Of a stretch of 64,000 bases of DNA, positions 10,736 through 36,797 are shown one piece after another. Under the pieces are notes generated by a model. That model saw only the letters and a list, made by a program, of their open reading frames with translations. It was not told where the DNA came from and searched no databases. Each line of letters begins with the position of its first letter. The first letter of the stretch is position 1. Position numbers and translations under genes: made by a program. The DNA is taken from positions 18,404 to 82,403 of the forward strand of contig CAPFSK010000002.1 in assembly GCA_948614045.1 (NCBI GenBank). The letters run 5' to 3'. Origin of the DNA: an uncultured Candidatus Saccharibacteria bacterium (GTDB taxonomy: Bacteria; Patescibacteriota; Saccharimonadia; Saccharimonadales; Saccharimonadaceae).

Positions 10736-10782
10736 GTTTTCATAACAGTGCTTGATGATGTGTACTGGGTAGTGTAATGCTA

Positions 10783-10811
10783 TTGACAAAAATAGCCAAG
10801 TATGCTACAAT
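10783..10811 (+). promoter_or_regulatory. Consensus sigma70-type promoter, copy 1 of a repeated promoter cassette
   Basis: TTGACA-17 nt-TGcTACAAT. Near-identical cassettes lie at 12889, 17402 and 56340. Confidence 0.75.
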
Positions 10812-10817
10812 GAAAAC

Positions 10818-10931
10818 ATAAGACGAAACTATATGTTTGCGCCACAGGTTTTTCATGTACTTAAGGCGTAAATAAGAGCCTTAAGTATTTTACGAATTTG
10901 TGGTGCTAGATTTTAGGAATGGAGGGATTTT
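10818..10931 (+). ncRNA. Structured 5' leader (copy A), homologous to the leader at 56375-56485
   Basis: Outer helix 10839-10845/10900-10906 encloses a perfect 8-bp hairpin 10860-10867/10878-10885. An SD follows. Confidence 0.5.
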
Positions 10932-11597
10932 ATGACTACGAAGAAATGTTATAAACGAGAATATATTTGCCAAAGCAACGAGTATGCAGATGATCTACAG
11001 TTTGTAACCAAGCATCCTGACGGTTTTACGCCCGGCTTCCCGGATGATCCGAGCCGGAGTAGCTTATCTCAGTTGACTATCAACTCTATTGCCAGACGGA
11101 CGGCAGTTAGATCTAATGGGCTTTCATGTGAAGCTGGTGATTATATACTCCGTGAGTTTTATAAAATTTTGGGAGGTGAGTTTAGTATTTGGCGTATTAT
11201 ATCCATTCAATTGGTGCCAAATTGCGCTAGGCTTAAGCTGGGAACTCCCGATCCGAGAGAAGATCCTTCATTGGGGGAGGATTTAGCTTGCGAGCTATTA
11301 GGCTATGAGTCTATTGTCGTAGATGTTGAAGGCGAAGATACTGCCGAGCATCGTTATCTTGCTGACCAGCAGTCAATTTTATACTTACAGCGTAGAGACG
11401 AGAAGAATCCAAACAAAATTGACTATCTTAAAATTCACGTGTGGCATTATTCTAAACGCACTTCTCTTCGGAGATCTGAGCAGGCATCCATAAGCATAAG
11501 GCACTCCGATCTTCCTGATTATTATTATGCTTATCTATACTGGAAAAGCAGAGATACGAAACGGATTATTGCTGAGATTACAGAAAAGACGCCTTAA
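10932..11597 (+). CDS. Hypothetical protein (orphan, 221 aa)
   Basis: ORF with SD GGAGGG 6 nt upstream, a strong promoter and a downstream terminator. Confidence 0.7.
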   Translation: MTTKKCYKREYICQSNEYADDLQFVTKHPDGFTPGFPDDPSRSSLSQLTINSIARRTAVRSNGLSCEAGDYILREFYKILGGEFSIWRIISIQLVPNCARLKLGTPDPREDPSLGEDLACELLGYESIVVDVEGEDTAEHRYLADQQSILYLQRRDEKNPNKIDYLKIHVWHYSKRTSLRRSEQASISIRHSDLPDYYYAYLYWKSRDTKRIIAEITEKTP

Positions 11598-11643
11598 ATG
11601 TCGCCGCTTATTATTTTTTGCACCACCGCTACCTAGGTAGCAC

Positions 11644-11677
11644 AAAACCGGAACAACATTATCGTTCCGGTTTTTTC
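11644..11677 (+). terminator. Intrinsic terminator
   Basis: CCGGAAC-loop-GTTCCGG followed by TTTTTT. Confidence 0.75.
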
Positions 11678-11697
11678 ATGCCTTTTACTATCCCTCC

Positions 11698-11910
11698 GGC
11701 GCCACCACCATAGTACAGTTACCATTGGCTTTTGTCCGTAGCGGGTGGGCAAAGCTCGATGGCGGCAGCATGCGCGTCGTCGGCCAGTACGGCTACTACT
11801 GGTCTCGTACCTCTATATCTACTACTAACGCCTACGTCCTGTACATCAACCCTACAGGCGTCAACCCGTCAGGCAACGGCAATCGTTTCGTCGGTCTCCC
11901 CTCCGCTGCC
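11698..11910 (+). pseudogene. FISUMP/DUF1566-like C-terminal cassette C1 (no ATG or SD, tail replaced by the inverted flank of C2)
   Basis: Encodes GATTIVQLPLAFVRSG...GYYWSRT...NAYVLY...PSGNGNRFVGLP. Only a TTG start, directly after the terminator. C-run of 4. Confidence 0.6.
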
Positions 11911-11928
11911 GTACTTCCTCTTCCTCCA

Positions 11929-12195
11929 TTAGGCACTACCTGGGTAGAGGCAGCGGAGGGGGAAACCGTCATTTCGCATGTTACCGTTTGATGGATGAAT
12001 GACAGTAGGATCCGTATACAAATACCAGGCAAGAGTAGATGAAACTGCTGTACGCGCCCAACTATAAGCACCGCGTATATTACCAACATTCCCATAGTCT
12101 AAATAGACATACCCGCTACGGACAAAAGTGAGTGGTAAAATGTTGTGATTATAACAACGCACATTTCCACAGTAATAACAGAGGAGATATGGCAT
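11929..12195 (-). CDS. FISUMP/DUF1566-like mini-protein, cassette C2 (88 aa, the only fully intact copy)
   Basis: ATG start. LTFVRSG...YSWARTAVSSTLAWYLY...PSNGNMRNDGFPLRCLYPGSA* with a C-run of 5. Confidence 0.6.
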   Translation of the reverse strand: MPYLLCYYCGNVRCYNHNILPLTFVRSGYVYLDYGNVGNIRGAYSWARTAVSSTLAWYLYTDPTVIHPSNGNMRNDGFPLRCLYPGSA

Positions 12196-12385
12196 AATGT
12201 TGTAAAAAATACATGAAAAATAGTCAGCAAAAATCCTCGAAAATCCTTGCTATTTCTACGCGAGTCAAGTATACTAGTAACAGTTCGAAAGAACATAAGG
12301 CTAACTGCGAGCCAACGATAAGTTGAGAGCTTATATGTTCAAAAAGTCGCCATGCTATGGGCGATTTTTTGGATTCCGGCTAGAG

Positions 12386-12598
12386 TCAGCGGAGGGGGCG
12401 ACCATAGTAACGATTGCCATAGTTTGATGGATAGATAATGGAAAAGCTGAAGTATAGACTGTAGGTATCGTTAGTCGAGTTTGATGTACGCGTCCAGCTA
12501 TAGCCGTTTGCTCCGATGACTCTTGTCTGGCTGACGCCAAGATCTACATATCCACTACGGACAAAAGCCAATGGTAACTGTACTATGGTGGTGGCGCC
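12386..12598 (-). pseudogene. Cassette C3 (no own start; TGC->TGA at the conserved Cys)
   Basis: GATTIVQLPLAFVRSG...GYSWTRT...DTYSLY...GNRYYGRPLR*. The 46-nt 5' block is identical to those of C1 and C7. Confidence 0.6.
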
Positions 12599-19032: not shown

Positions 19033-19057
19033 TCGCGGCGGTGCTATAATATTAACT

Positions 19058-24254: not shown

Positions 24255-24339
24255 GCCCGTGTGGTGAAATTGGTATACACGTATGCCTTAGGAGCATATG
24301 CCGCAAGGCGTGCTGGTTCAAGTCCAGTCGCGGGCACCA
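24255..24339 (+). tRNA. tRNA-Leu (anticodon UAG), long variable arm, CCA encoded
   Basis: Acceptor GCCCGTG/CGCGGGC, anticodon loop CTTAGGA, variable arm GCCGCAAGGCGT, T-arm GCTGGTTCAAGTCCAGT. TGCTATAAT promoter at 24237-24245. Confidence 0.9.
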
Positions 24340-25898
24340 TCAATGAATTCCTTGCCTTTGAGCAAGGTAGCAAAAGGCTCTTTCCAGAGGAAATGAGGCC
24401 TTTTTTCATCGTCAATTTCGAGGTTCAAGACGCATTTTCGAGTAAGCATGTCTTTTTCGGCTACACCAGCATTTCTTATCTGTTGCGGAAGGTTTTTAAG
24501 CAGGTTCAAGAACTCATCTTTAGAAACTATGGCTTGTTGGTATTTCTCGATATTGCCATCAATCTTCGAAAGTTCTGTCTCGATGTTTGCTAGGTCAGTT
24601 TCCAAAGACGCTAACTTATTCTGGGCGAGCTCACGGGGCTTCGAGCCAACTTGTAAGCTTGGCATTACGTTAAAAGAAATATGGTTTATTTCTGACGTTA
24701 GGTGAGATTTTCTACCTTGTAGACTACGGCGGTCAGTTCTCAACTGGACGACTTTCTCATCCGACCGTTTACCAAACTGCTTGCTATATGCTTTGTATTC
24801 TTTCTCCGTAAACTTTACGCTGTCTAGAGCTCTGTATAGAACGTTAAATATCGCCTCTGCACGTATGCTCTTTTGTGTTCTGGTACACTCCTTGTTGTCG
24901 CATCTATAATATAGATACCTTTCCTTACTGTGCGACCGACTAGCTCCAGGATACATTACATGCCCACAAACACCGCAACGCACCATGCCTCTTAAAGGAT
25001 AAAATGTAGCACGATTCTTCTTACTGGTTTTACCGGTCTTTCCATGAGGATTATCCGCAACAATAGCCTGAACTTTGTTGTATTCTTCCTCCGTCACCAT
25101 TGGCTTGAAATCATCAATTACTTTCCTTAAGTCCACCTCTTGGTCTGCTTGGACTAGCACTCCATAGTAAAATGAATCTTTGAAGATATTTGTCGGAGTA
25201 TTTATACTTGGCTTTATTGCTCGCGGAGTTTTATTCTTCCTATTAACCTTTGTCATCTTTTCCATTCCACTTTGTAGCCAGTAATCCAAAATCTCCTTAT
25301 TGCCCGCACCTTCTAACTTCATCTCCCAACCCTTACGGACTAAATCAAAGTTACTATCGGGTTCATAAAACCCTTGTAAGTTGCGATTATAGCCCCATTT
25401 TGGAGTGCCAGAGGACTTACCTTCTGGCAGTCTATTATCATTAGCACGTAACACACCTTCAGAAATATGCTCGGAGTATTGTTTAGCTAGAGCAAATAGG
25501 ATGTTCAACATAAGCTTACCACTACTATCATTCTCAAATCGACAAAACGGGAACTTCATGTCCTTAATGATTTCCTTGTCATACATGTCCATGATGGTAC
25601 CAGACTCTAGTGAGTTGCGAGAGAGCCTATCAGGATGCCATGCAATAATACCATCATAGATACCGTTTTCGATATCTTGTATCATCTCCATAAATGCTGG
25701 TCTGTTCTTGGGTGTTTTGGCAGACTTTTCTTCACGTATGACCTTAACAATCTTTAGTCCCTCACGCTTTGCTAGAGCCTTACAGTCCTTTATCTGGTCT
25801 TCAATGGAATGCTCTTGACTACCTTTATCTTCTGTAGATTTCCTCGCATACAGGACATAGTTCAGTTTAGATACATCTATCTCCTTTTTGCGTGCCAT
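24318..25898 (-). CDS. Large serine recombinase (integrase)
   Basis: N-terminal resolvase domain YARKSTEDKGS...HPDRLSRN, recombinase domain, zinc ribbon CGVCGH...YYRCDNKEC, and a coiled-coil tail. Confidence 0.9.
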   Translation of the reverse strand: MARKKEIDVSKLNYVLYARKSTEDKGSQEHSIEDQIKDCKALAKREGLKIVKVIREEKSAKTPKNRPAFMEMIQDIENGIYDGIIAWHPDRLSRNSLESGTIMDMYDKEIIKDMKFPFCRFENDSSGKLMLNILFALAKQYSEHISEGVLRANDNRLPEGKSSGTPKWGYNRNLQGFYEPDSNFDLVRKGWEMKLEGAGNKEILDYWLQSGMEKMTKVNRKNKTPRAIKPSINTPTNIFKDSFYYGVLVQADQEVDLRKVIDDFKPMVTEEEYNKVQAIVADNPHGKTGKTSKKNRATFYPLRGMVRCGVCGHVMYPGASRSHSKERYLYYRCDNKECTRTQKSIRAEAIFNVLYRALDSVKFTEKEYKAYSKQFGKRSDEKVVQLRTDRRSLQGRKSHLTSEINHISFNVMPSLQVGSKPRELAQNKLASLETDLANIETELSKIDGNIEKYQQAIVSKDEFLNLLKNLPQQIRNAGVAEKDMLTRKCVLNLEIDDEKRPHFLWKEPFATLLKGKEFIDGARDWT

Positions 25899-25927
25899 AG
25901 ATGTATTATATCATATTACCCCTGTTA

Positions 25928-26149
25928 TTAGAACTTAATCATACCTCCTCTATTATCACTCATAGTAGTTGCTGTATCAAACTTCGCCCATTCTGGATTG
26001 GGGCACGGTGTATTTTGCAGGTGTTTCAGGCAGTGGACTAGAGCAACCAGATTGTCGCCAGCCTCATCCTCTTTGGACCGTAAAGCGAGCACTAGCCGAC
26101 TATCACTATCATCAGGCTTCAAAATCAAACCATTCTGATTAGTCTTCAT
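25928..26149 (-). CDS. Hypothetical small protein (73 aa)
   Basis: ORF in the same orientation as, and tightly spaced with, the integrase operon. Confidence 0.45.
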   Translation of the reverse strand: MKTNQNGLILKPDDSDSRLVLALRSKEDEAGDNLVALVHCLKHLQNTPCPNPEWAKFDTATTMSDNRGGMIKF

Positions 26150-26253
26150 CAGCTAGTGCCTCCGTGTTTATGTTAGTTTTTGTTTTATACTGACATTATC
26201 TCGTAAGACACCAAAAAGTTCTTCACCCGTGAGGGGGATATTTGGGGGATGTT

Positions 26254-26868
26254 TTATTCTATATCGAGTCTATAAGCGGTTGGGTTTGTCCGGACCCTGT
26301 TGACGTGCTTATGGCCATCTCCGTAGTATGGAGCTAGAGCTTCATCAAGTTTGCATTTATGCCTAGATACAGTAGCGACGTTATCGTCACCCCATATCCT
26401 TGCTATCTCCACCATCGTCAGAACATGCTCATCATTCAATAGGAATGCTACTAGGACTTCCCGGAGTTTACCACCAAAGGCTATTTCCTTATCGCGAAAC
26501 AGAATACGTCCACCAACCAGTAGCTCATAATCACCAAGTTTCGTAGGCTGATGTCTAGACTGTGCGGAGCGATTGATAGACTTGAGATGATATAGTTGCC
26601 CTCGCATATCAACAATTAACCCGATATAGTGCCTCAAATAGTCACCACAATTATCTGGAGTTAGTTCACCAAACGTATTGCCAGCAATTAGTCTAGCGTG
26701 TAAATCTAACTGGTCGGTGCCCAGAACTAGCGTATCTAGTTCCTGTTTCCAAGAAGATATGTCATCAACAGTTAGGGGCAGAGTTTGAGCTTTAACCGAC
26801 AGCCTACCTAGACTTTTAGCTATTTCTTCTAAATGCTCCAATTCTTCTGTTGTATCGCCCCGAATCAT
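26254..26868 (-). CDS. Putative DNA-binding regulator with OmpR/PhoB-like winged-helix C-terminus
   Basis: The C-terminus resembles trans_reg_C: LREVLVAFLLNDEHVLTMVEIARIWGDD...VSRHKCKLDEAL...AYRLD. Confidence 0.55.
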   Translation of the reverse strand: MIRGDTTEELEHLEEIAKSLGRLSVKAQTLPLTVDDISSWKQELDTLVLGTDQLDLHARLIAGNTFGELTPDNCGDYLRHYIGLIVDMRGQLYHLKSINRSAQSRHQPTKLGDYELLVGGRILFRDKEIAFGGKLREVLVAFLLNDEHVLTMVEIARIWGDDNVATVSRHKCKLDEALAPYYGDGHKHVNRVRTNPTAYRLDIE

Positions 26869-26925
26869 GGGTATATTATAACAGATGTAGTCGTCGATTA
26901 GTATTGAGGGGTGCCGTATTATATA

Positions 26926-28356
26926 CTACTGCTCATCTAATTCGGCTAGTTGACGCAAAAGTTCCGCCCTGCGTTGCTCCTTATAATCGTCAACAACCGT
27001 TTCAGGTATATCTAGCGTGCTTTGGTGTCGGTTCATAAACCCAGCAACGTCCTGATTGACGATAATATCTTCTCTACTAATCGGTCGAGTGAGATATAGA
27101 CTGTCCAAAGAAACACAACGGGAAACCGCCACATAAGTCTGACCCGAGCTAAATGCTCCTCCCTCTAAATTTACCTCTACTGATTTGTAGGTTTGACCCT
27201 GTGCCTTATGAATGGTTAATGCCCATGCCAAACGTAATGGAAATTGCGTGAAAGTAGCAACAGTCCGAGCTACCAATTTTTTAGTATTGGCATTATACTC
27301 ATAAACTTTCTTCTCCCAAGTAGCACGGTCAATGCGGTATTCGACTTTGTTAATCATAACTTTCACCATATCCTGCGATAGCTCCGATACAACCCCAATA
27401 GTGCCGTTCACCCAGCGTCTACCCCGATTGGTTCCGTATGTAGCCTCATCACCCTCTGTATCGTTCTTCAACATCATAACTTGAGCACCAACTTTTAGGT
27501 GTAGCTCCACTTCGGTTGGAGTACCAAACTTGGAAAAATCACCAGTAATACTTGCTTGATAAGTGTATTCTGGTCGTCCAATTTGATTTAATCTTTCTTG
27601 ATTAATTCTTGAAACTGTTTCGTTGCGAGGACTGAGGACTATGGCTCGATTATGGTCATCGCGTGGGGCAGTGCCAGAACAATGGTTGAGAACATCCAAC
27701 TCGTTGTCAGTAATACGGCCCTCCCGCATGTCGTTTAGAATACTGATAAAACCGGGATCCTTTTGCCGAAAAACACGTTTAAGTTCATAGACTGGCAGTG
27801 GTGCCCTATCAAATACTGGTGCATTAAAGAAAAACACACCACCATACTTATCCGTCAAATATCTATCTACTTGCGGCTCAACGACTGGTGGTAGTTGATA
27901 TAAATCTCCGAACATAAGGACTTGTTTTCCACCAAACGGCAATGTATTGTTGTTGGCAAGCTGCAATTTAAGGTCAATGGCCGACATAACATCCACTCTC
28001 ACCATTGAGACCTCGTCTATGATGAGAACATCAATAGATTTCAAAATCTCCTGACGTTTACCCCATACACCCTTGCGTTTGATTTCTTCAAGGTTTTGAA
28101 CATTAATATCTAGCCCGAAGAATGAATGCATTGTTTGGCCGCCAACATTTAGTGCTGATATCCCAGTTGGGGCAACTTTTACCACGTTCTTATGTGTATT
28201 CTTAACAAAATACTCTAGCAAAAAGGACTTACCGGAACCAGCTCGACCAGTTATATACATGGTTTCATTGGCTCTCTCCATACGATTAAAAATGCGAATT
28301 TTCTCCTCGTTTGGTAGTTCGTTATTGCTCTTCGTCACCGGTTTAAGGAGTGCCAT
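26926..28356 (-). CDS. Pif1/RecD-like SF1 helicase
   Basis: Walker A GRAGSGKS, Walker B LIIDEVSMV, FGDLYQLPPV, and the C-terminal TIHKAQGQTY motif. Confidence 0.85.
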   Translation of the reverse strand: MALLKPVTKSNNELPNEEKIRIFNRMERANETMYITGRAGSGKSFLLEYFVKNTHKNVVKVAPTGISALNVGGQTMHSFFGLDINVQNLEEIKRKGVWGKRQEILKSIDVLIIDEVSMVRVDVMSAIDLKLQLANNNTLPFGGKQVLMFGDLYQLPPVVEPQVDRYLTDKYGGVFFFNAPVFDRAPLPVYELKRVFRQKDPGFISILNDMREGRITDNELDVLNHCSGTAPRDDHNRAIVLSPRNETVSRINQERLNQIGRPEYTYQASITGDFSKFGTPTEVELHLKVGAQVMMLKNDTEGDEATYGTNRGRRWVNGTIGVVSELSQDMVKVMINKVEYRIDRATWEKKVYEYNANTKKLVARTVATFTQFPLRLAWALTIHKAQGQTYKSVEVNLEGGAFSSGQTYVAVSRCVSLDSLYLTRPISREDIIVNQDVAGFMNRHQSTLDIPETVVDDYKEQRRAELLRQLAELDEQ

Positions 28357-28361
28357 CTTAA

Positions 28362-28790
28362 TTACTCCTTATCACTATCATCTAATAGCCCCACCTGATT
28401 AACGGCAGCCTTACTCTTCGTCGTCCGTCTAGGCTTCTTTGGTGTAGCTTTAGATTCATTTTTAAGTTGAGGACGAGCGACTACTTCTGATGCTGATGGG
28501 TTTAATTGAGTAATAGGTTCGGGCTGGGACGACTCCTGTGCTACGATAGGTGTATCATAGTCGTCATCAGCATTAATAGTTCCTGACTCTTGCCGTAATA
28601 CCTCCTTATAGGCAAGATTACTCAACGCATAGGCAGTCTGTCGAGTTTCCTCTAGACTAGTAGTTAATTCCGCCAAGCTAGAGCTTATACCTTTGATTAG
28701 TTCATGGTATGAAGCAATTTTTTGCTCAAGTGTTTGAATACTATTGCTCATTTGTTCCCAACGGCTAGCATCGTTACCGGTCAGTTCCAT
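28362..28790 (-). CDS. Hypothetical coiled-coil protein with basic tail
   Basis: First gene of the leftward operon. Helical N-terminus and K/R-rich C-terminus. Confidence 0.55.
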   Translation of the reverse strand: MELTGNDASRWEQMSNSIQTLEQKIASYHELIKGISSSLAELTTSLEETRQTAYALSNLAYKEVLRQESGTINADDDYDTPIVAQESSQPEPITQLNPSASEVVARPQLKNESKATPKKPRRTTKSKAAVNQVGLLDDSDKE

Positions 28791-28831
28791 AAGACTCCTT
28801 TTACATAAATATTATTGTGGTGACAATTAAA

Positions 28832-28951
28832 AAGGACACCACGAGAGGTGTCTTACTTCCTACATCACACCTAGACACAAAGTGTCCTGGTGTTCTACAT
28901 GGTGTCCTGTAAATGGGCACCTTGTGTATCAGATGTGATGTATTAAGTAAG
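28832..28951. promoter_or_regulatory. Iteron/operator cluster
   Basis: Palindrome AGGACACC-n5-AGGTGTCT (28833-28853). A 21-bp imperfect IR (28851-28871 / 28930-28951) brackets direct repeats GTGTCCTG, GTGTTCTA, GGTGTCCTG and GGGCACCT. Confidence 0.55.
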
Positions 28952-29739
28952 ACATCTATATTATACCATACGAACCCAATTCATCAAACAGAAACCGCCC
29001 TGCGGACGGTTCGCTGGCAGACCTAACGGTCGCCATCGGGGACACTAATTAGCGTACATGATAGATTCACCAGACAAATACTCTAGCTACTATCATCAAA
29101 AGAAAAATAATAATTCATGCGAGCGATACTGTCATTTGATATAATTCACCAATACTATAAAACGAACACCTATATCACTTTTACAGAGGTATATACTTTG
29201 ATGAGTCCTTATTTCTCTATATAGACTATATTGAGTAAGAACCCAATCATTTCCTATAATTCCCCCGCAAAATACCGCCTCAAAACGCCCGTTTTAGGCT
29301 GATTCTACAGTGTAATGGTCTGACTTTAAGACACTCTCATTGTCGAGATGATACTTATACCGTCTTCGATATTATGTTGCCGATTTCTCACTGGTGTCGG
29401 TGCGATTCAGAGCTAAAACAGTATAATGAATGTCTTTGTCTCTCCTTGAGTTCCTACCCACTTCCGATTGGTGGTGAGCTCCAGTAGAGCAGAGAACTCG
29501 GCGGGGAGGGGTTTAGCTAATATCATCAAGATAAAACATCAAAAGACTAAAGGACTACATATAAATCATGCGAATAGTAGTATCTAAACCTCCTCTATTC
29601 CGTAAGGGCAAGCCTACTCCATATTCATCAAGCTAGACCGACAAGGGGGCTCTGGAGGGGGTAGCTAAAGTAAGCAACCAACTATTCTCTTAACAGCTCC
29701 GCTGTCTGTCTATGAGTATTAAATAAAAGGAGCATAACT

Positions 29740-30030
29740 ATGAGCAATGCTGAAGAGTTACGAACTATACTAACAAGAATCATCAAAAACAACAAGCTAT
29801 ATGGATGTAGTTTTACCTATGGAGTAGCTTTGCGTATGGGTATAGTAAACCAACTATTTCCCGACGAATTAGACCAACTGATTACCGATACGATTGAAGA
29901 CATCTATAAGGACACTCTGGACGTGATGGGCGACGCGGGTATGCGTGTCGATACTGTTGCTATAGCCCACGTCATTGATATAGCAGTGCTAGACGAGATA
30001 GCTCGACATCTTATTGACGAGGAAGATTAG
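29740..30030 (+). CDS. Hypothetical acidic small protein (96 aa)
   Basis: ORF with SD AAAGGAG. Confidence 0.55.
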   Translation: MSNAEELRTILTRIIKNNKLYGCSFTYGVALRMGIVNQLFPDELDQLITDTIEDIYKDTLDVMGDAGMRVDTVAIAHVIDIAVLDEIARHLIDEED

Positions 30031-30127
30031 CTACCAGGTAGGAGGAGTCATTGCGACTTCTCCTCTTTTTATGTCACCAATACAAAGCCCTTCGGGCTCT
30101 GCCTACAGCCTCCGCTGGTGAGAATAG

Positions 30128-30907
30128 CTACCTGCTGTTGATTTTGTTCAACTTCTTGGAATTTTCTTCTCTTCGCCGTTGCCGTATTTGTTCGTGCAAC
30201 TTGTCCTCCAAAATCGTATCGATAGCATCTTGCAATACAAGGTATTGCTTTTCACACTCTCCCTCACTCAACTCGTGTATACCGCTACTCAAAAGTTTAT
30301 AGAGAACACTAAATCCAGTGTCTTTCAAATACTCATCGAATACGCCTTTTTCGACAAGTTCTTTTACCCTGTCTGACATATACTGTTTTGGTTCAGTAAT
30401 GTCAGCTTGAGTTTCTGCTTGTTTGACGAGCGACTCAAAGACACGCCGTAAGTAGTTAAAAGCAGCAATGTATAGACCTGAATAATAAGCTTTAGCGGCA
30501 TTAAGTCTATACTCTTTATCGCCTTTGGAGAGTAGCTTAATAGCGTCACTATTTACGCTCACGTCAAATTGAGTGGCATCTGGATATTGACCAATCTTAA
30601 CTAGACGAGAATTGGGCATAGCTTCCAAAATAATCTCAACGCTTTTACCACACGTGCATGCGAATTTTATACGCTTAATGGAATTATCAAATACAATGTT
30701 TTTATTAGATGTCGATAACTTTATAGCTACGTCTTGAGTATCCGTGTAATGAATCGCTATAAAGCCACGTTCTCCGCCGCAGTTCGGGCAAAAGAGGGTG
30801 GTTTGTTGGCCTTTGCTAGATAAGAAATCACCTCTAGTCTTGTCGTCATTGAATTTGTATTCAAACCCAATCGGTTTCGGGATAAAATCTGCAAGTTCTA
30901 TCGTCAT
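30128..30907 (-). CDS. Zinc-ribbon + DUF4145-like protein (possible defence/abortive-infection cargo)
   Basis: CPNCGG...CTCG ribbon. C-terminal helical region LNAAKAYYSGLYIAAFNYLRRVFESLV resembles DUF4145. TGTTATAAT and an SD lie upstream. Confidence 0.6.
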   Translation of the reverse strand: MTIELADFIPKPIGFEYKFNDDKTRGDFLSSKGQQTTLFCPNCGGERGFIAIHYTDTQDVAIKLSTSNKNIVFDNSIKRIKFACTCGKSVEIILEAMPNSRLVKIGQYPDATQFDVSVNSDAIKLLSKGDKEYRLNAAKAYYSGLYIAAFNYLRRVFESLVKQAETQADITEPKQYMSDRVKELVEKGVFDEYLKDTGFSVLYKLLSSGIHELSEGECEKQYLVLQDAIDTILEDKLHEQIRQRRREENSKKLNKINSR

Positions 30908-31122
30908 CAGTTAAGCTCCTTTGTCTAAATTATAACACTTCGAGTAATAGGTTCAAAAGTTTTCTGGTAGTTCTCCTACAACTTGTATTCCTCTTGATGT
31001 CTTAAGATTGCCAATATCTCTTGCGTGACCGATTCGGGCTCCAATAGCTGAATACTATCATCTTGTGCCAGGTATTCTACAAGATAATCGTAATGTTCAA
31101 GCAAGTTCACACTCGGGGCACC

Positions 31123-31159
31123 AGACCAAGAAAATGTATTTTTTACATTTTCTTGGTCT
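31123..31159 (+). terminator. Perfect 16-bp hairpin, terminator-like
   Basis: AGACCAAGAAAATGTA-ttttt-TACATTTTCTTGGTCT followed by a T-rich tract. Confidence 0.5.
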
Positions 31160-31433
31160 TATTTGTTTCCCGCGACTGAAGTGAACCGCATTTTACGCCA
31201 GTAAAATCGGTTCATAATGAGGAGGAGCATGAGGAAAGCTAAAATTTATTTTAGCTTTCTGAGTCGACGACGAAATGCTGCGCGTTAGCGCAGGTTCCAG
31301 TCGCGACAACAACTATTTTTGTGTCAGGGAAAATTGCCTGTCCAATCGCGAAATTAATATATGGATCTAGCTTACAAAAATCCAATTTTTCTAACCTAAC
31401 TTTTGCTAACTACCTCTGTTAAGAATAGCTTCG

Positions 31434-31465
31434 GACGTTAAAATTTTTAGAAAAATTTTAACGTC
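31434..31465. promoter_or_regulatory. Perfect 15-bp inverted repeat (operator-like) upstream of cassette C7
   Basis: GACGTTAAAATTTTT-ag-AAAAATTTTAACGTC. Confidence 0.5.
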
Positions 31466-31502
31466 GCAAAAAACAATACTAATGTAGGTCCTCTATAATA
31501 TC

Positions 31503-31772
31503 ATGAATTATTATATTACAACTACCGGCGCCACCACCATAGTACAGTTACCATTGGCTTTTGTCCGTAGTGGGTATATCTATCCACCAAGTGGCGCTAT
31601 CCTTAATGTTAGTGCTAATGGCTATGGTTGGTCCAAAACTTCTAAATCATCGACTAGCACATATGATTTAGGCATACATCCGGATAACGCCAATCCGTCC
31701 GATAGCAGTAATCGTTATGATGGTTTCCCCCCTCCGCTGCCGTGCCTGAAGCCAATGGAAGAATGGAGATGA
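31503..31772 (+). CDS. Cassette C7: FISUMP/DUF1566-like mini-protein (ATG start; C-run of 6 gives an alternative tail)
   Basis: MNYYITTTGATTIVQLPLAFVRSG...GYGWSKT...STYDLG...PSDSSNRYDGFPPPLPC.... With 5 Cs it would end GFPLRCRA*. Confidence 0.5.
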   Translation: MNYYITTTGATTIVQLPLAFVRSGYIYPPSGAILNVSANGYGWSKTSKSSTSTYDLGIHPDNANPSDSSNRYDGFPPPLPCLKPMEEWR

Positions 31773-31885
31773 GAAATAGCTACTCTCAGGAATCTTCGCG
31801 ACCAACGGGGAGCGAGCGAAGCGCAGACCCGCCCGTAACGACGGGACGGGTCAAGCGGGTCCTGAAAGTAGCTATTTCTCATATC
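31766..31885. repeat. 120-nt palindromic element: 26-bp arms (2 mismatches) around a GC-rich 68-nt core
   Basis: GAGATGAGAAATAGCTACTCTCAGGA ... TCCTGAAAGTAGCTATTTCTCATATC. The core has its own hairpins (CTTCGC/GCGAAG, CCCGCCCGT/ACGGGACGGG). Confidence 0.8.
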
Positions 31886-31900
31886 TTCCTCTTTCCTCCA

Positions 31901-32141
31901 TTAGGCACTACCTGGGTAGAGGCAGCGGAGGGATCGACCGACGTAGCGACCACCGCCAGCTGATGGATCGACCGACGTAGCGACCACCGCCAGCTGATGG
32001 ATCGACATTATCGGTGTAGATAAATAAGTCATAGGCGTTATTCGGTGAATTCGCCGTACGCGACCACAGCTGAGCATAGCGACCAACATACCACACCGCG
32101 CTAGCATCAAGATATACAATCCCGCTACGGACAAAAGCCAT
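31901..32141 (-). pseudogene. Cassette C5, disrupted by a 34-bp tandem duplication
   Basis: ATG-AFVRSGIVYLD...LWSRTANSPNNAYDLF...DPSAGGGRYVGRS, then a frameshift. The frame after the duplication ends SLRCLYPGSA*. Confidence 0.65.
31931..31998. repeat. Perfect 34-bp tandem duplication (plus 8-bp partial third copy)
   Basis: GGATCGACCGACGTAGCGACCACCGCCAGCTGAT x2. Confidence 0.95.
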
Positions 32142-32150
32142 ATGCTGAAC

Positions 32151-32411
32151 TCAGTTTTCCGAAAGATCGGCACCAAACTGTGGCCAAACCCAGCGGAGGG
32201 GGAAACCCCAGTAGCGATTTGTCGCATTCATATTGAGATCCGTAGGGTTGAAGTTGAGACGATAGGCGTTGGTAGACGAGTTTGCCGTACGCGACCAGTC
32301 GTAGCCGTTGCTACCGACGTTGGCGACACCACCACCGGTAAGATTAGTATGCCCGCTACGGACAAAAGCCAAACATAACCTAGCGCTAGAGCAAAAGAAG
32401 CCAGTCCGCAC
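32151..32411 (-). CDS. Cassette C6: FISUMP/DUF1566-like mini-protein with divergent tail (GTG start)
   Basis: LAFVRSGHTNLTGGGVANVGSNGYDWSRTANSSTNAYRLNFNPTDLNMNATNRYWGFPLRW.... Cys->Trp at the conserved RC. Confidence 0.45.
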   Translation of the reverse strand: MRTGFFCSSARLCLAFVRSGHTNLTGGGVANVGSNGYDWSRTANSSTNAYRLNFNPTDLNMNATNRYWGFPLRWVWPQFGADLSEN

Positions 32412-33274: not shown

Positions 33275-35242
33275 CTAGTATCTCGGCGCCAGCTCGCGGC
33301 TATACGTTTCATTATAACTCGAGCCATATCTCGAAGCTTGAGCATAGCCCCAGAGGTAACTATCCGCACGCAAGTTAAATACTTCTGCCGAACTCTGGCG
33401 CGTTGAGTACCCAGTGGCGCCATTCGTCGCCAACCCTCTGCTCATCTGCGCCTGCGAGTCTGCTCCAAATGTCCGATTCAGCTTCATGCTGCCCGCTACT
33501 ACTGGCCCGTTGAAGACTAACTGTTGCGTACATGTATTACCCGCATTCCCTACGCCATCGCTTGTCGTTCCAGTACCACCGGCCGTGCCTTCTGCATAAT
33601 CTACGCAAGTATTGACTTCGCCCTTGGCGATAATCCAAGCGTCAATCCGCGTCACATCACTTTTTACTTTGACGTTATTTGCGAAAATAATCGTCTGCGG
33701 CAAACTCCGTACATTATAATTTGTATCATCGTTCGCAGAATTATTAACGTAACTTCCACTCGCGCTACTAATCGTAATATCCGTATTGCTGTCTCCGATA
33801 ACTGTCACTCCTGCCGCCGGATCACTACCTACTTTTTCTAGGTATGCCGTCAATCGCGTTCGGAACGCGCTCGAGCTCAGGTTTGATCCCGCACCCGCTA
33901 GGTTGCATCCAACATTGGAAATCGTGAGTGGCGAATTCGTCGACCAAGGCGAAGTTGCGTTATTGCAAACTGCGTCGTTTGTCGATGTTAAGCCCGTCCC
34001 GTTACTAATACTTGCGCCCGAAGCAATCGCCTTACTTTTATCCATCTTGCCAGTCGACGCCGCCAGATATTCTGACCATGAACCGTAGAGATTGCGCGAA
34101 TCGCCTGCTACAGGCATGCCTTCGGCGTTTTCTAGCTGGGTGCTTCCGGCCGGAGTCATGTACCCCAGCGTTGGTCCGAGTCCACTAATCAAATGCCGTT
34201 TCGCGAGCGACATTATAATGCTGTAACCTTGATTATCCTGACTAGAAACTAGTAAACTCCCATTCCAAAACGCCGTTGTCGGCCTTTTGGCGATCGTCCG
34301 GCAGGCTGGCTGCGCAACATAGGTATAGTCCTTTGCTGGTTCCGAGGTGTAAGTTACGCTGCTCGCACCATTCGCCTTAATGCCGTAAAAATATCGGAAC
34401 TTATAGCCGAACGAGTTGCAGTACTTCTGCCCAATATCATCCGGCACGGCCACGGTCGCCGTCTCGCTAGTCGTGTCGCTGCCTGACGCCCCGTTTTCGG
34501 CTCTATCCGCATAATCGACCGTATAGCGTGTCAGCCGACTACAAGCAAGTGGTTGCGGATTCCGCCCCCAGAATAGATTACATAGGGCCGTCCCTTTGAA
34601 CCTCGCTGCCCCTGCGACTAGGCTTGCATCATATGAAATTCCTGCGCCATGATTAAATACCACTGCTTCCTTGCCGATTAGGCGCCGTGTTTTGACTCCG
34701 TTCGCCGCACCGCTAATCGCCAGCGTTGCATCTTCTCCTGCTAGCATTGCGTATTCTGATCCCGCTGATGCCCCTAGCCCCACATTCGCTTGAGCCAGAG
34801 GATCCTTGCCGTTCTCGTCTGAACCCATATATGTAATATAGGCACAGGCTTGTGAATTCGCAGCGTTTTTACCGCCTTCGACAATCCAGTTGTAACCGGC
34901 GCCAGCCAGACCATTCACGACGAAGTCGACGTATTTTTTCTCGTACCTCACGCGCCGGCAAACTCGCTTCGTTTTCCCGCTGTCAGCTGCTGCAAACTGC
35001 ACGGTCACCGTATCGTTTCCGATTGTCGCTCCGCTATTCTGGCTTTCTTTTCCACTCGGCGAGGTCCAAGTCCCGGTCGCTCCACGCTTATCTTGCCAGT
35101 CTTTATTCGCCCAAGCATCCCCGCTCTCTGTGCCGGATTTCGTTCGAATTTTCCAATCTACTGACGGCGCCTGTACGGTGTCATTTGCGCCAAATGGATT
35201 AGTTACTTCGTAGAATAATTCATGTTTGAAGTTGACTGTCAC
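33275..35242 (-). CDS. C-terminal part (655 aa) of a large secreted protein, in frame with the upstream ORF across one TGA
   Basis: No signal peptide and no SD, only a GTG start. Same frame as 35270-36079. Confidence 0.6.
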   Translation of the reverse strand: MTVNFKHELFYEVTNPFGANDTVQAPSVDWKIRTKSGTESGDAWANKDWQDKRGATGTWTSPSGKESQNSGATIGNDTVTVQFAAADSGKTKRVCRRVRYEKKYVDFVVNGLAGAGYNWIVEGGKNAANSQACAYITYMGSDENGKDPLAQANVGLGASAGSEYAMLAGEDATLAISGAANGVKTRRLIGKEAVVFNHGAGISYDASLVAGAARFKGTALCNLFWGRNPQPLACSRLTRYTVDYADRAENGASGSDTTSETATVAVPDDIGQKYCNSFGYKFRYFYGIKANGASSVTYTSEPAKDYTYVAQPACRTIAKRPTTAFWNGSLLVSSQDNQGYSIIMSLAKRHLISGLGPTLGYMTPAGSTQLENAEGMPVAGDSRNLYGSWSEYLAASTGKMDKSKAIASGASISNGTGLTSTNDAVCNNATSPWSTNSPLTISNVGCNLAGAGSNLSSSAFRTRLTAYLEKVGSDPAAGVTVIGDSNTDITISSASGSYVNNSANDDTNYNVRSLPQTIIFANNVKVKSDVTRIDAWIIAKGEVNTCVDYAEGTAGGTGTTSDGVGNAGNTCTQQLVFNGPVVAGSMKLNRTFGADSQAQMSRGLATNGATGYSTRQSSAEVFNLRADSYLWGYAQASRYGSSYNETYSRELAPRY

Positions 35243-35269
35243 ATTAGCTTCATCCGTACTAATCTCGAC

Positions 35270-36079
35270 TCATGCTGACCCGTCGGCGGCGCTAGTCGCA
35301 CTGTAGCCGGATATATCTGAACCTTGCTCAGGAATTTCAACTGTAGACTTGGAGTAAAAACGGTTTTTGTTTTCGTCATTCGTCGTATCATTGATAATTG
35401 CACGAACTTCAGACGGGTCGCTACCGCAACCTTGCCCCGAGATATTAAAGCATCGATAAACTTGCACTGTACGTCGACAGTCTTTCGCTCCGTTTGACAA
35501 GTCGGTACAAGTACTATCTGAAGATGAGAAGAATGTATCCAAATCGGTAATTGTATTCCCGCCAAGACTACCTCCTCCGGACCATTCGTATTGCGTTTGC
35601 GTATAACCGCGCGGAATCGAACGGCTCTGGTAGGTGATTCCTGGAATTGAGCTACCACTACTATCGCGCAAGTCCGTATCGACGGCTGTAACTTGGTATG
35701 GAACTTCGGTATTATGTCCGCACCCGTATACCATCCCATGAATATCAAAAGTTGCCGTCCTATCGCGTCCGCCGACTTCGCGATTTGCCAGCACTAATGC
35801 TTGACCTGGACCACCCCCAGCAGCGTTGCTAATCCATAGGGCTCCCCAGCGCAGACCTGTGTTATTTCGACAGTTCGTACAGGCACTTTGGACTGCTGGA
35901 ATTCCGCCTACTGCTACGCCGCCTAAAACCGCTTGCTCCTCGCAGCCATCGGCATTGGCTGCCGCAAGAGCCTGGCGCGGGTGCGCTATTAGCATTGGCA
36001 AGCTCAGAATAGCCATCAACGCTAAAGCAATAGCTATGTAGTGAGTAGTGCGTTTCGCGATTTGTTGTTCAATTTTCAT
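35270..36079 (-). CDS. N-terminal part (signal peptide + Cys-rich domain) of the large secreted protein
   Basis: ATG at 36079 with GGAG upstream. Signal-like HYIAIALALMAILSLPMLIA...ALAA. Ends at TGA 35270-35272. Confidence 0.65.
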   Translation of the reverse strand: MKIEQQIAKRTTHYIAIALALMAILSLPMLIAHPRQALAAANADGCEEQAVLGGVAVGGIPAVQSACTNCRNNTGLRWGALWISNAAGGGPGQALVLANREVGGRDRTATFDIHGMVYGCGHNTEVPYQVTAVDTDLRDSSGSSIPGITYQSRSIPRGYTQTQYEWSGGGSLGGNTITDLDTFFSSSDSTCTDLSNGAKDCRRTVQVYRCFNISGQGCGSDPSEVRAIINDTTNDENKNRFYSKSTVEIPEQGSDISGYSATSAADGSA

Positions 36080-36080
36080 C

Positions 36081-36797
36081 CTATCCCACTCCGTTTGTAT
36101 CAATCATTGTATTATTTTCAATAAACTCCTCGCACCGCTCCGCTTTTTCTGGCTCTTCAAGACTATTCCAGGCATTTACCATCGCATTACAGTAAGTCAG
36201 AGCCTCGTCCAGCGGTAAATCATCAGGATTAATCCCGTCTCCGACTTCAACTACACGCTCCGGGTAACTATTCGCTGCATAAAATAACATTTCGGCAATT
36301 GTGATGCGATTGCGATCGTCAATGGTTGCCGCTTCGTTCTTCTGTTCTTCATAATACTCTACTGCGCCTTCAATATTCTGTTCGTCGCTGTCGTCTGATT
36401 CTGTATTGTAAATTTTATTCGCGCTGGTTTGAATATCCTTGATTGTTTCATCCTGCAAAAAAGTCATTTCCTCTGGTTCCGGCCGGCTCAACGTTGCAAT
36501 AATCCACCAAGTCCCCAGCCCAGTCAACAAGATTAGCAAGCCTACGATTAAGATAATCGAAATCATCTTTCGTGTTTTCTCGTTCTGCTTTTTCCGCTCA
36601 GCTGCCCGCGCCTTATGCTCCTTGAACGGGTCTTCCTGCCGCGCAGTGATTTTTCCAATCTCCGACGATCGAAACTGAATATTAGACTCTTGACTCGTAT
36701 CCGTACCTTGTGCGTCAGGCGCCACTGACACACTCCCAGCCTTAGTAGCTGTTTGCGCAGCACCAGAAACCGGGCTACTATTAGACGGCTCGCTCAT
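36081..36797 (-). CDS. Hypothetical single-pass membrane protein
   Basis: SD GAGGAGG before the ATG at 36797. TM segment ISIILIVGLLILLTGLGTWWIIA. Confidence 0.65.
   Translation of the reverse strand: MSEPSNSSPVSGAAQTATKAGSVSVAPDAQGTDTSQESNIQFRSSEIGKITARQEDPFKEHKARAAERKKQNEKTRKMISIILIVGLLILLTGLGTWWIIATLSRPEPEEMTFLQDETIKDIQTSANKIYNTESDDSDEQNIEGAVEYYEEQKNEAATIDDRNRITIAEMLFYAANSYPERVVEVGDGINPDDLPLDEALTYCNAMVNAWNSLEEPEKAERCEEFIENNTMIDTNGVG

Follow-up and report, generated by a model that had tools for sequence, protein, structure and literature searches.

The 64,000-nucleotide stretch of DNA analyzed in this study (the window), from a mouse-gut Candidatus Saccharibacteria genome, contains a site-specific integrative mobile element of 6,784 bp at positions 24340 to 31123. 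The element is inserted at the last 8 nucleotides of a tRNA-Leu(UAG) gene, which it leaves intact, and its presence is polymorphic between strains and between species. Its horizontal acquisition as an integrative element at this tRNA, the site at which an earlier note on the sequence had placed it, is supported by the evidence below. The element belongs to a modular and apparently undescribed family. The constant backbone of the family consists of a winged-helix protein, a protein of approximately 73 amino acids, a large serine recombinase (Int), and a non-coding leader with a promoter, a hairpin, and a terminator. A single cassette slot is swappable and holds a coiled-coil protein and a PIF1 helicase in this member, and end cargo is optional, being found in some members and represented here by the genes of 96-aa and 259-aa proteins. 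The reading that we favor, with some reserve, is that of a site-specific element of this modular family with the Int isoforms and the circular form described below.

The target tRNA gene (24255 to 24339, plus strand; ARAGORN; Rfam RF00005, 55.5 bits) carries the anticodon tag of tRNA-Leu(UAG). The same tRNA is found in three loci of related genomes (L012, L040, and L041), in which it is joined straight to the sequence corresponding to position 31124. These empty sites, whose absence from relatives the earlier note had named as evidence against integration, belong to one near-identical strain (left flank approximately 95% identical) and to the representatives of two related species. A three-way comparison of attL, attR, and attB gives the core GGGCACCA, located at 24332 to 24339 (attL) and at 31116 to 31123 (attR, by comparison with the empty sites), both on the plus strand; the core is the final 8 nucleotides of the tRNA, CCA included. 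The repeat is exact over these 8 nucleotides and has two mismatches when extended to 15 nucleotides of the tRNA 3' end (24325 to 24339 versus 31109 to 31123). In the reconstructed attP, inverted arms (TCAA.GCAAG..TTCA) read off the sequences are centered on the core. The right end, which had been put at about 31.3 kb (31305), is actually at 31123, and the following segment (31124 to 31573) is AT-rich host DNA that is present in the empty sites as well. A host terminator hairpin (31123 to 31159, plus strand) directly follows the tRNA in those sites and is outside the element. Homology of three related loci (L031, L034, and L052) to the window ends exactly at 31123, and a contig of run X34 has this position attached to a different flank. 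The assembly graphs fork at both ends of the element; the fork at the attL core is seen in runs X8 and X11, both of which also contain an element-only contig of 6,838 nucleotides covering 24310 to 31147. In the Islander sense, the element shows an intact tDNA at one end, a displaced copy of the tDNA end at the other, an int gene abutting the tRNA, and an empty target site in the three relatives, but its integrase is of the serine family instead of the tyrosine family.

Occupancy of the site (element present, absent, or replaced by another occupant) differs among strains that have an identical flanking protein and flanking DNA approximately 94 to 95% identical, and the alternative occupant is a 2.7-kb element encoding small-terminase-like proteins. 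A decaying prophage or island remnant that is fixed in the lineage and immobile would account for the missing structural genes and for the failure to find an excision junction of this copy. We disfavor this explanation as very improbable, since presence, absence, and alternative occupancy vary among closely similar strains, all ORFs of the element are intact and identical in more than 100 sample blocks, near-identical Ints occur in different tRNA genes, both att sites are intact, and the detached 3' end of int, described below, is still under coding constraint.

The GC content of the element is 41.7%, compared with a host mean of 48.2% (sd 1.2, minimum 45.4), which makes it the lowest-GC 6.8-kb stretch within the window. 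The lower GC content that had been noted by eye is therefore real, although the difference is smaller than the suggested one third inside versus well over half outside. The windowed composition plot recommended in the earlier note also reveals the anomaly, with a tetranucleotide distance to the host profile of 0.0275 for the element versus a host maximum of 0.0143. In gut metagenomes, the depth of the element contig equals its share of the flanking chromosome, which fits one integrated copy per chromosome; therefore, the element was not amplified in those samples. The excision junction that had been proposed as a further check was not seen for this copy: no circular (attP) junction turned up in the Logan contigs of 12 runs, a search of contigs only that rare junctions would escape, or in IMG/VR or JGI metagenomes.

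Int is encoded at 24318 to 25898 on the minus strand and has 526 aa in its integrated form. It shows the domain order of large serine recombinases, with Pfam matches to Resolvase (residues 15 to 160, 9.6e-24), Recombinase (186 to 282, 2.1e-8), and Zn_ribbon_recom (301 to 354, 1.1e-9), followed by a coiled-coil-like match at residues 381 to 457. It is a PHROG 95 integrase (2.7e-70), and matches to XisF and CcrB are below the cutoff. The 8-bp shared core and the partly symmetric arms are also those of a large serine recombinase. As had been noticed from the sequence, the int ORF ends inside the 3' end of the tRNA; it extends 22 nucleotides into it, and the last 7 codons and the stop are derived from the tRNA. 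A detached int 3' end of 48 codons and a stop (30976 to 31122, minus strand) is located at the opposite end of the element and, in our reconstruction, continues the int reading frame only when the element is circular. The reconstructed attP is inside the int ORF, and Int would be 568 aa when encoded by the circle versus 526 aa when integrated; insertion swaps its conserved 46-residue tail for 4 residues.

In a comparison with L031, 23 codons of the tail are identical, 15 are synonymous, and 10 are non-synonymous, the stop is the same, and the identity to the window falls from 82% to 56% after this stop. The tail also aligns end to end (E = 9e-5) with the tail of Int from the relative L038, which is a circular contig of 5,788 bp with an uninterrupted Int of 590 aa. 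No protein with this tail fused to the full Int was found in a set of 5.8 billion proteins. Judging from the codon comparison, the tail is under coding constraint though it is detached from int in the chromosome, which points to recurrent selection in the circular form. We tentatively propose, while considering it rather unlikely in its full form, that integration toggles Int isoforms: the 568-aa form of the circle, with the conserved tail, would be needed for, or would bias toward, attP × attB recombination, and the chromosomal 526-aa form, with its end supplied by the tRNA, would differ in activity, stability, or direction. If true, a serine-recombinase family specialized on the 3' ends of tRNAs would carry its own directionality or commitment switch, and this in a bacterial phylum with few characterized mobile elements.

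The ORFs follow the order and orientation given in the earlier note, i.e., integrase, small ORF, winged-helix protein, helicase, and coiled-coil protein, with the cargo in the rightward part. The small ORF (25928 to 26149, minus strand) encodes a 73-aa protein that is always located between the winged-helix gene and int and is conserved in L031, L032, L038, L045, and L052. It has no family match in Pfam, PHROGs, NCBIfam, or PADLOC, and its position makes it a candidate directionality factor or regulator. The conserved intergenic region upstream of this gene and int (26150 to 26254, minus strand) holds an 11-bp direct repeat, which reads ATCCCCC-N4-ATCCCCC on the minus strand (26233 to 26254; TRF) and is kept in L031, L037, and L038 and degraded in L039. 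The adjacent gene (26254 to 26868, minus strand) encodes a DNA-binding protein of 204 aa, in which an N-terminal helical bundle is followed by a C-terminal winged helix of the OmpR/PhoB type. Its AF2 model (pLDDT 84.9) matches the DNA-binding domains of GlnR, PhoB, and KdpE in Foldseek (probability 1.0, TM approximately 0.7). It has no Pfam match, and only 11 clusters match among 5.8 billion proteins. The ATCCCCC repeat is a candidate binding site for this protein.

The stretch from 28791 to 29739 is 949 bp long and has no conserved ORFs, as expected from the proposed 0.95-kb non-coding iteron region, but the iterons are absent: a repeat search and TRF found scattered two-copy matches only and no tandem or regularly spaced family of direct repeats. 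An iteron replicon would have three or more direct repeats of approximately 17 to 22 bp beside a Rep gene, whereas this region shows no such array and the element has no match to a Rep or primase family. The region contains the leader of the leftward operon (28826 to 28987, minus strand), which is composed of a promoter-like site (TTGATG-16-TG-TATAAT, 28987 to 28960, from a promoter and terminator scan), a long hairpin of 105 nucleotides (approximately 28850 to 28953), and a terminator hairpin with a U tract (28852 to 28826). The leader has a minimum free energy of folding of -53 kcal/mol (z = -5.9), shows compensatory changes in 13 of the 42 pairs of the hairpin among five family members, and is conserved ahead of four different cassettes. 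Alignment of the window with L031, L037, and L038 also reveals an invariant block of approximately 85 nucleotides (29570 to 29665), which has no conserved ORF, no supported fold, and no Rfam match. The block is regarded as non-coding because a frame-shifting gap in relatives argues against a coding role, and it may serve in cis as an origin, a packaging site, or a protein-binding site.

The cassette consists of a PIF1/Dda-like SF1B helicase (26926 to 28356, minus strand; Pfam PIF1 5.2e-28, PHROG 325 Dda-like helicase 1.6e-80) and a 142-aa acidic coiled-coil protein that travels with it (28362 to 28790, minus strand). The latter has weak coiled-coil matches only and is conserved upstream of PIF1 in L037, L038, and L039. 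In L052, an HNH-nuclease gene takes the place of both genes at the same two breakpoints (28829 and 26887); a 302-aa gene fills the slot in L031, and other members carry unrelated small genes there. Since relatives that keep the backbone have replaced the PIF1 cassette with HNH or other genes, the helicase may not serve replication, and "replication module" is a label for this slot that we infer.

The end cargo comprises a 96-aa acidic protein (pI 4.3; 29740 to 30030, plus strand), whose gene is followed by a terminator-like hairpin (30040 to 30064) and which is 92.7% identical to its counterpart in L052 (85% at the DNA level), and a 259-aa protein (30128 to 30907, minus strand) with its own promoter-like site (30956 to 30929). 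The model of the 259-aa protein (AF2 pLDDT 88.9) combines a beta/zinc-ribbon-like domain at the N-terminus with a helical domain at the C-terminus, with no significant fold match in the PDB (Foldseek). Its matches to STM4504 (0.0015) and PHROG 25239 (1.3e-8) are weak, and that to DUF4145 (PF13643), after which the gene had been named, is below threshold (13.9 bits versus a cutoff of 23.1, E = 0.057), so the assignment is not confirmed.

These observations bear on the possibility that the element is non-replicative and copied wholly by the chromosome, the coiled-coil/PIF1, 96-aa, and 259-aa genes being accessory cargo, for example against phages or other elements. We regard this as a serious possibility that falls short of an even chance. 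It fits the exchange of the cassette for an HNH nuclease or unrelated small genes, the lack of an initiator and of iterons, the pairing of a homologue of the 259-aa protein with an NYN nuclease in one operon (L046), and the resemblance of the helicase core to helicase parts of candidate defense proteins (PADLOC: PDC-S68 8.9e-20, AbiO, and Nhi). However, the PADLOC matches do not reach beyond the generic P-loop region of the helicase (residues 10 to 158). In addition, Dda/PIF1-type helicases are annotated as replicative in many phage records, and L038, the sole circular member of the family that was found, has no cargo besides the PIF1 cassette.

Relatives of the element occupy tRNA-Leu(GAG), a Leu(UAA)-like tRNA, and tRNA-Glu, with int always ending inside the tRNA, and Ints that are 99.6% identical are found in two different tRNA-Leu genes. 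The integration module of the sister element L031 (winged-helix gene, small gene, and int) shares 99.9% identity over 2,614 bp with the corresponding module of the phage contig L032, whose genes include those for a large terminase, a protease-capsid fusion, a tail fiber, and RusA; therefore, such elements meet phages in one cell. Searches of Pfam, PHROGs, NCBIfam, and PADLOC found no capsid, tail, lysis, or conjugation genes in the element, in agreement with the earlier note, and no packaging or capsid-redirecting genes (terS, cpm, or sid/psu-like). A phage satellite would remain integrated until a helper phage that shares its Saccharibacteria host infects or is induced and would then be excised, replicated, and packaged by the helper; the invariant block would serve as the cis site, and the role of the cassette and cargo would be interference or defense, with no replicon. 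The small size, the combination of integrase and regulator without structural or transfer genes, the module shared by L031 and the phage, the 2.7-kb alternative occupant, the single-copy depth in gut samples, and a variable cassette and cargo with its own promoter, which resemble the hotspots of P4-like satellites, all agree with this explanation. We nevertheless consider it somewhat unlikely, given that no small terminase, capsid-remodeling gene, or other known hijack gene is present, that the invariant block has no match in L032, that IMG/VR viral contigs contain no relatives of the element or of its helicase, and that neither the helicase nor the 259-aa protein has a full-length match to known defense systems in PADLOC.

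A satellite- or plasmid-like replication module, as the earlier note had it, is not demonstrated: in addition to the swappable cassette and the single-copy depth, the element has no iterons, no packaging-hijack gene, and, among its ORFs, no replication initiator or primase (Pfam, PHROGs, NCBIfam, and PADLOC). Satellite-like or plasmid-like behavior is still plausible, because L038 is circular (5.8 kb) and the integration module of L031 is nearly that of a phage. In the favored reading of a modular integrative element, the recombinase would exchange strands within the 8-bp core, the circle would encode the 568-aa Int, and the integrated copy the 526-aa Int ending in tRNA-derived codons. The isoform switch and the 73-aa protein may help to set the direction or level of recombination, and the probable target of the winged-helix protein is the pair of ATCCCCC repeats upstream of the 73-aa gene and int. 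The PIF1 cassette and the invariant block would most likely contribute to the maintenance or amplification of the excised circle, and helper-phage capsids or natural transformation could provide the route between cells.

Similar to iteron-type replicons, the element has a long AT-rich non-coding region beside a helicase gene; however, a promoter, a structured leader, and the invariant block are found in place of an initiator and an iteron array. It shares with phage satellites (PICI, P4-like, PLE, and vibrio PICMI) the size class and the combination of integrase, regulator, and variable accessory slot, and the sharing of modules with phages is matched in L031, but genes of the terS, capsid-size, or helper-sensing type were not identified. 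The domain set of Int (Resolvase, Recombinase, zinc ribbon, and coiled coil) is that of phiC31, Bxb1, A118, PLE Int, CcrB, and XisF, and, as with large serine integrases, attP and attB have a short common core without long flanking repeats; the core of Bxb1 is reportedly 8 bp, which is comparable to that observed here. To our knowledge, characterized large serine integrases integrate in protein-coding genes or repeats, whereas this family uses at least four tRNA genes and has attP inside int. Tycheposons of Prochlorococcus also combine a streamlined host genome with insertion in tRNA genes, and their layout, in which an integrase at the tRNA end faces inward and is accompanied by a small replication module and cargo, is matched by the gene map of the element. 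They are cyanobacterial elements of 10 to 20 kb with shared hallmark genes and mostly a lineage-specific tyrosine recombinase (bioRxiv 10.1101/2020.12.28.424599), and it is unlikely that the element is one of them because the recombinase family and the host phylum differ. In the Myxococcus xanthus phage Mx8 (PMC6070905; PMC4383910, citing Tojo 1996), attP is within the coding sequence of int, the 3' part of a tRNA gene serves as the target, and integration gives int a new 3' end. The element has these features in common with Mx8 IntP/IntX, its crossover being inside the int ORF and the C-terminus of Int being altered; on the other hand, the Mx8 enzyme is a tyrosine recombinase, encoded by a phage of 49 kb, whereas the 6.8-kb element encodes a large serine recombinase in which 46 residues are exchanged for 4.

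The element occupies positions 24340 to 31123 of the window (6,784 bp) and is inserted site-specifically at the 3' end of a tRNA-Leu gene, with its ends set by the 8-bp core GGGCACCA. The tRNA gene (anticodon tag) lies on the plus strand at 24255-24339, where both ARAGORN and Rfam report one tRNA. The extent of the element follows from an empty-site strain (L012) found via a flanking host protein: its left flank is approximately 95% identical to that of the window, and its tRNA runs straight into position 31124. Empty tRNA-Leu sites in relatives, which the earlier note had proposed as a check, are also present in two species-representative Saccharibacteria genomes (L040 and L041; flanks 93-94% identical). 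In attB, the tRNA sequence ..GTCGCGGGCACCA is followed by GACCAAGAAAATG.., i.e., by the terminator hairpin of the tRNA; attL reads ..GGGCACCA and then TCAATGAATT.., and attR reads ..CACTCGGGGCACCA and then GACCAAG... The similarity of three relatives (L031, L034, and L052) to the window ends exactly at 31123, and a contig of the metagenome run X34 joins 31123 to another flank. In the runs X8 and X11, the element forms its own contig of 6,838 nt (24310-31147), which means that the assembly graph forks at both element ends. The insertion is polymorphic in the population. The window sequence occurs in mouse-gut metagenome runs and is 100% identical to CATLDX010000001.1 (assembly GCA_949916095.1).

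The right end had previously been placed at 31305, in a tRNA-like fragment (31282-31305, ..GGTTCCAGTCGCGAC..). This fragment was rejected as attR because it also occurs in L012; it belongs to a piece of approximately 130 nt with inverted ends, which the empty-site strain retains as well and which must therefore be host DNA. The piece (31165-31295; ends CGCGACTG and CAGTCGCG) is located just to the right of the tRNA terminator, is missing from L041, and may be what an older insertion left behind or a small element with inverted repeats. Runs X9, X11, X12, X33, and X34 contain further sequences before or after the tRNA, e.g., ACAACCCAGAGGGCG.. after 24339, which points to more occupants or strain contexts at this gene in the same samples. 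The composition contrast is real, although smaller than the spot counts of the earlier note (about one third GC inside, well over half outside) had implied: the GC content of the element is 41.7%, versus a mean of 48.2% for host windows of the same length (SD 1.2, minimum 45.4), and its tetranucleotide distance from the host profile is approximately twice the largest host value.

Open reading frames and domain and profile matches bear out the gene order and orientations first proposed. The ORF of the large serine recombinase Int (526 aa, 24318-25898, minus strand) contains the full domain set of such enzymes and ends 22 nt within the 3' end of the tRNA. The next four genes to the right, also leftward, encode a 73-aa protein, a 204-aa protein, a PIF1/Dda-like helicase (Pfam PIF1, 5.2e-28; PHROG 325, 1.6e-80), and a 142-aa coiled-coil protein; a stretch of 949 bp without a conserved ORF separates the last of these from a rightward ORF for an acidic 96-aa protein (pI 4.3), which is followed by a leftward 259-aa ORF. 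No helicase relatives were found in IMG/VR. The top "phage" matches of the helicase, MT838644.1 and MT837265.1, were set aside: these GenBank records from human faeces are named "Bacteriophage sp." but carry PBP, LptD, FadL, and a Pif1-TPR helicase and look like Bacteroidota-type chromosomal fragments, not phage genomes or small elements.

When the element ends are joined in silico, the int ORF grows to 568 aa (526 aa as integrated), i.e., attP lies inside int. The last four residues, which are encoded by the tRNA (RDWT), give way to a tail of 46 aa whose codons descend from 31116 to 30979 and end in a stop at 30976-30978. Comparison of the window with its relative L031 over the 48 codons to the same stop gives 23 identical, 15 synonymous, and 10 non-synonymous codons, and the identity falls from 82% to 56% immediately past that stop. 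The tail also aligns end to end and without gaps with the C terminus of the uninterrupted 590-aa Int of L038 (E = 9e-5). These comparisons indicate that the detached tail is a real coding sequence. Cut off from int in the chromosome, it could not remain under coding constraint unless the element returned regularly to a circular state, and this is the strongest indirect evidence of ongoing mobility. In a collection of 5.8 billion proteins, the tail was not found fused to a full Int and is represented only by a called ORF of 54 aa. In every integrated copy of the family, the int ORF ends within the tRNA; a serine recombinase that is aimed at tRNA 3' ends and truncated by its own integration is unusual. 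The enzyme would exchange strands within the 8-bp core, on which the inverted arms of the reconstructed attP are centred. In the circle, Int would be made at full length, and in the integrated copy in a truncated form.

Control of int probably involves the winged-helix protein and the 73-aa protein. The predicted structure of the 204-aa protein, modelled with its 11 homologues (pLDDT 84.9), combines a helical bundle at the N terminus with a C-terminal domain that matches the DNA-binding domains of OmpR, PhoB, and GlnR (Foldseek probability 1.0, TM approximately 0.7), in support of its initial label as a winged-helix regulator. OmpR-type domains typically bind direct repeats, and the conserved region between the 204-aa gene and the downstream 73-aa and int genes contains an 11-bp direct repeat of this kind, ATCCCCC-N4-ATCCCCC, on the coding strand. 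Binding of the 204-aa protein to this repeat is a candidate link.

The iterons described earlier for the 0.95-kb non-coding region were not recovered; a repeat search and TRF gave only chance-level pairs in 28700-29800, and the window as a whole shows no enrichment of the motifs TTAGMTAA and GGACACY. The region instead contains a promoter-like site (TTGATG-16-TG-TATAAT) that is conserved across four aligned relatives. It is followed by a hairpin of approximately 105 nt (-53 kcal/mol, z = -5.9), of whose 42 pairs 13 show compensatory changes when five family members are compared, and then by a GC hairpin and a U tract directly before the cassette of the coiled-coil and helicase genes. This stretch resembles a transcribed leader (or attenuator) or a small RNA; alternatively, the large hairpin could act at the DNA level, e.g., as an origin. 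Approximately 600 bp beyond the leader, a block of approximately 85 nt is almost invariant among relatives that are otherwise 68-83% identical, and their alignment gives it neither a conserved reading frame nor a supported fold. An RNA structure was rejected for this block, with a positive RNAalifold covariation term (+0.57); only four of its 42 pairs showed compensatory changes, and none of these four lay within the invariant core. The block is a candidate cis-acting site. An Rfam search of 28700-31400 was empty even at E <= 1.

At the right end of the element, the 96-aa protein is kept at 92.7% amino acid identity where the DNA is 85% identical. The 259-aa gene has its own promoter-like site, and its product was modelled with a pLDDT of 88.9; a fold search of the PDB gave nothing significant (best Foldseek match, the RnlA toxin, probability 0.3), a PDB profile search was empty, and none of the family scores was significant (DUF4145, E = 0.057; STM4504, 0.0015; PHROG 25239, 1.3e-8). 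In another genome (L046, 7375-8771), the gene of a 38%-identical homologue overlaps the end of an NYN-domain nuclease gene by 4 nt, which suggests a two-gene system. A role in defence or exclusion is a guess.

The family is small and modular. Only 11 homologue clusters of the 204-aa protein exist among the 5.8 billion proteins, and no member was found in 185k species-representative genomes. The homologue contigs share a constant backbone (the 204-aa gene, the ~73-aa gene, the serine recombinase, and the non-coding region), and the remainder varies. A relative of approximately 5 kb in tRNA-Leu(GAG) (L031-L035) has a 302-aa gene instead of the helicase and is without the end cargo; an element of the same type with a 99.6% identical Int is inserted in a Leu(UAA)-like tRNA (L054), and L039 and probably L037 occupy tRNA-Glu(UUC). 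L052 shares the window backbone at 85-92% identity and carries an HNH-nuclease gene where the window has the coiled-coil and PIF1 genes; the exchanged stretch runs exactly from 28829 to 26887. In L045, the slot contains ORFs of 151 and 150 aa plus a 68-aa ORF. L038 is a circle of 5,788 bp (30-nt terminal overlap) that carries the backbone and the PIF1 cassette only.

An active integrative element whose Int isoform depends on integration is well supported and is the best of the readings considered. Self-replication after excision, which ranks second, is possible; what counts against it is that no initiator, primase, or iterons were found in the element, that the cassette is swappable, that the depth is that of a single copy, and that contigs contain no attP junction. 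In X8, the depths of 19.8 for the element, 9.8 for an alternative occupant, and 31.1 for the flank fit one integrated copy. The circular junction, a second check proposed earlier, gave no matches in IMG/VR (exact 28-mer), five unrelated chance matches in the JGI metagenomes (20-mer), and no joint in the Logan contigs of twelve runs. In RNA runs, the contig depth is low and flat and is uninformative on expression. A dead remnant ranks last and is unlikely, given the coding constraint on the tail. The earlier reading of a satellite- or plasmid-like island thus holds in that the integrated element is real, and more than a generic island, but its replication module was not established. The cassette behind the leader may serve maintenance of the circle or interaction with phages.

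A helper-dependent satellite, third in rank, is a serious rival, and two findings speak for contact with phages. Over 2,614 bp, the integration modules of L031 and of a phage contig (L032) share 99.9% identity, and in other strains the same tRNA site is occupied by a different 2.7-kb element without an integrase that encodes two small-terminase-like proteins. In the phage-like contigs L032 and L036, the module (9937-12550) consists of a 205-aa gene, a 74-aa gene, and int, and L032 also carries a large terminase, a protease-capsid fusion, a tail fibre, RusA, and NYN. Its similarity to L031 ends at the att core, and its 553-aa Int has an unrelated tail; the contig may come from a free phage or from a prophage integrated elsewhere, or it may be a chimera. 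The 2.7-kb element (L020, 6861-9588; also L015, L019, and a 2750-nt contig in X8) is inserted between window positions 24339 and 31118, and its ends have GCACCAGA in common with the target. Its 99-aa and 178-aa proteins match small-terminase PHROGs (4.9e-11 and 1.3e-6, respectively), and the element may act as a mini-satellite that relies on an integrase supplied in trans.

Other loci of the window are also repeated or variable among strains. Three small paralogous ORFs with an AFVRSG motif are located at 31503-32411 and near 11.7-12.66 kb. Positions 31923-32006 contain a 34-nt tandem repeat. The 50 nt at 31525-31574, where most contigs break, have a word depth 20-50 times that of the flank in every run and are a highly multi-copy sequence in the sampled communities. 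A second strain-variable spot, near 19040 between trmD and recG (L001, L007, L004, L013, and L015), holds prophage-like Rad52, YqaJ, and MT-A70 genes in some strains and the type I restriction gene HsdR with Fic in others. At 33275-36103, a 655-aa ORF (33275-35242) and the neighbouring 269-aa gene (called in L002 and L022, inside a 277-aa ORF at 35270-36103, with a divergent stretch at 35392-36073) correspond to a single ORF of 901-934 aa in other strains and may represent a variable or split surface protein.

Saccharibacteria, members of the CPR/Patescibacteria, have tiny genomes, and characterised mobile elements from them are, to our knowledge, few. As a compact enzyme with a defined 8-bp core located in a conserved tRNA gene, the serine integrase is a candidate tool for DNA insertion into these bacteria, and the remodelling of a recombinase gene by its own reaction offers a simple, testable model of directionality control. 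With its swappable cassette, its module shared with a phage, and the terS-like mini-element that competes for its site, the modular family is also a way into the interplay of phages and elements in these epibionts. The serine-recombinase lineage uses several tRNA genes, which were long regarded as targets of tyrosine integrases only (PMC4383910); in 2014, the Islander authors wrote that no serine integrase was known to use a tRNA gene as its target (PMC4383910). A full-text literature search with partial coverage found no later paper on a tRNA-targeting serine-recombinase family or on the element itself. In phage Mx8 (PMC6070905; PMC4383910), attP lies within intP, and a gene with a different 3' end arises on integration. 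The element resembles Mx8 in having attP inside int, whereas the Mx8 enzyme is a tyrosine recombinase and that of the element is a serine recombinase. In lifestyle, the closest analogues are tycheposons and phage satellites, and the element belongs among the small tRNA-targeting integrative elements.
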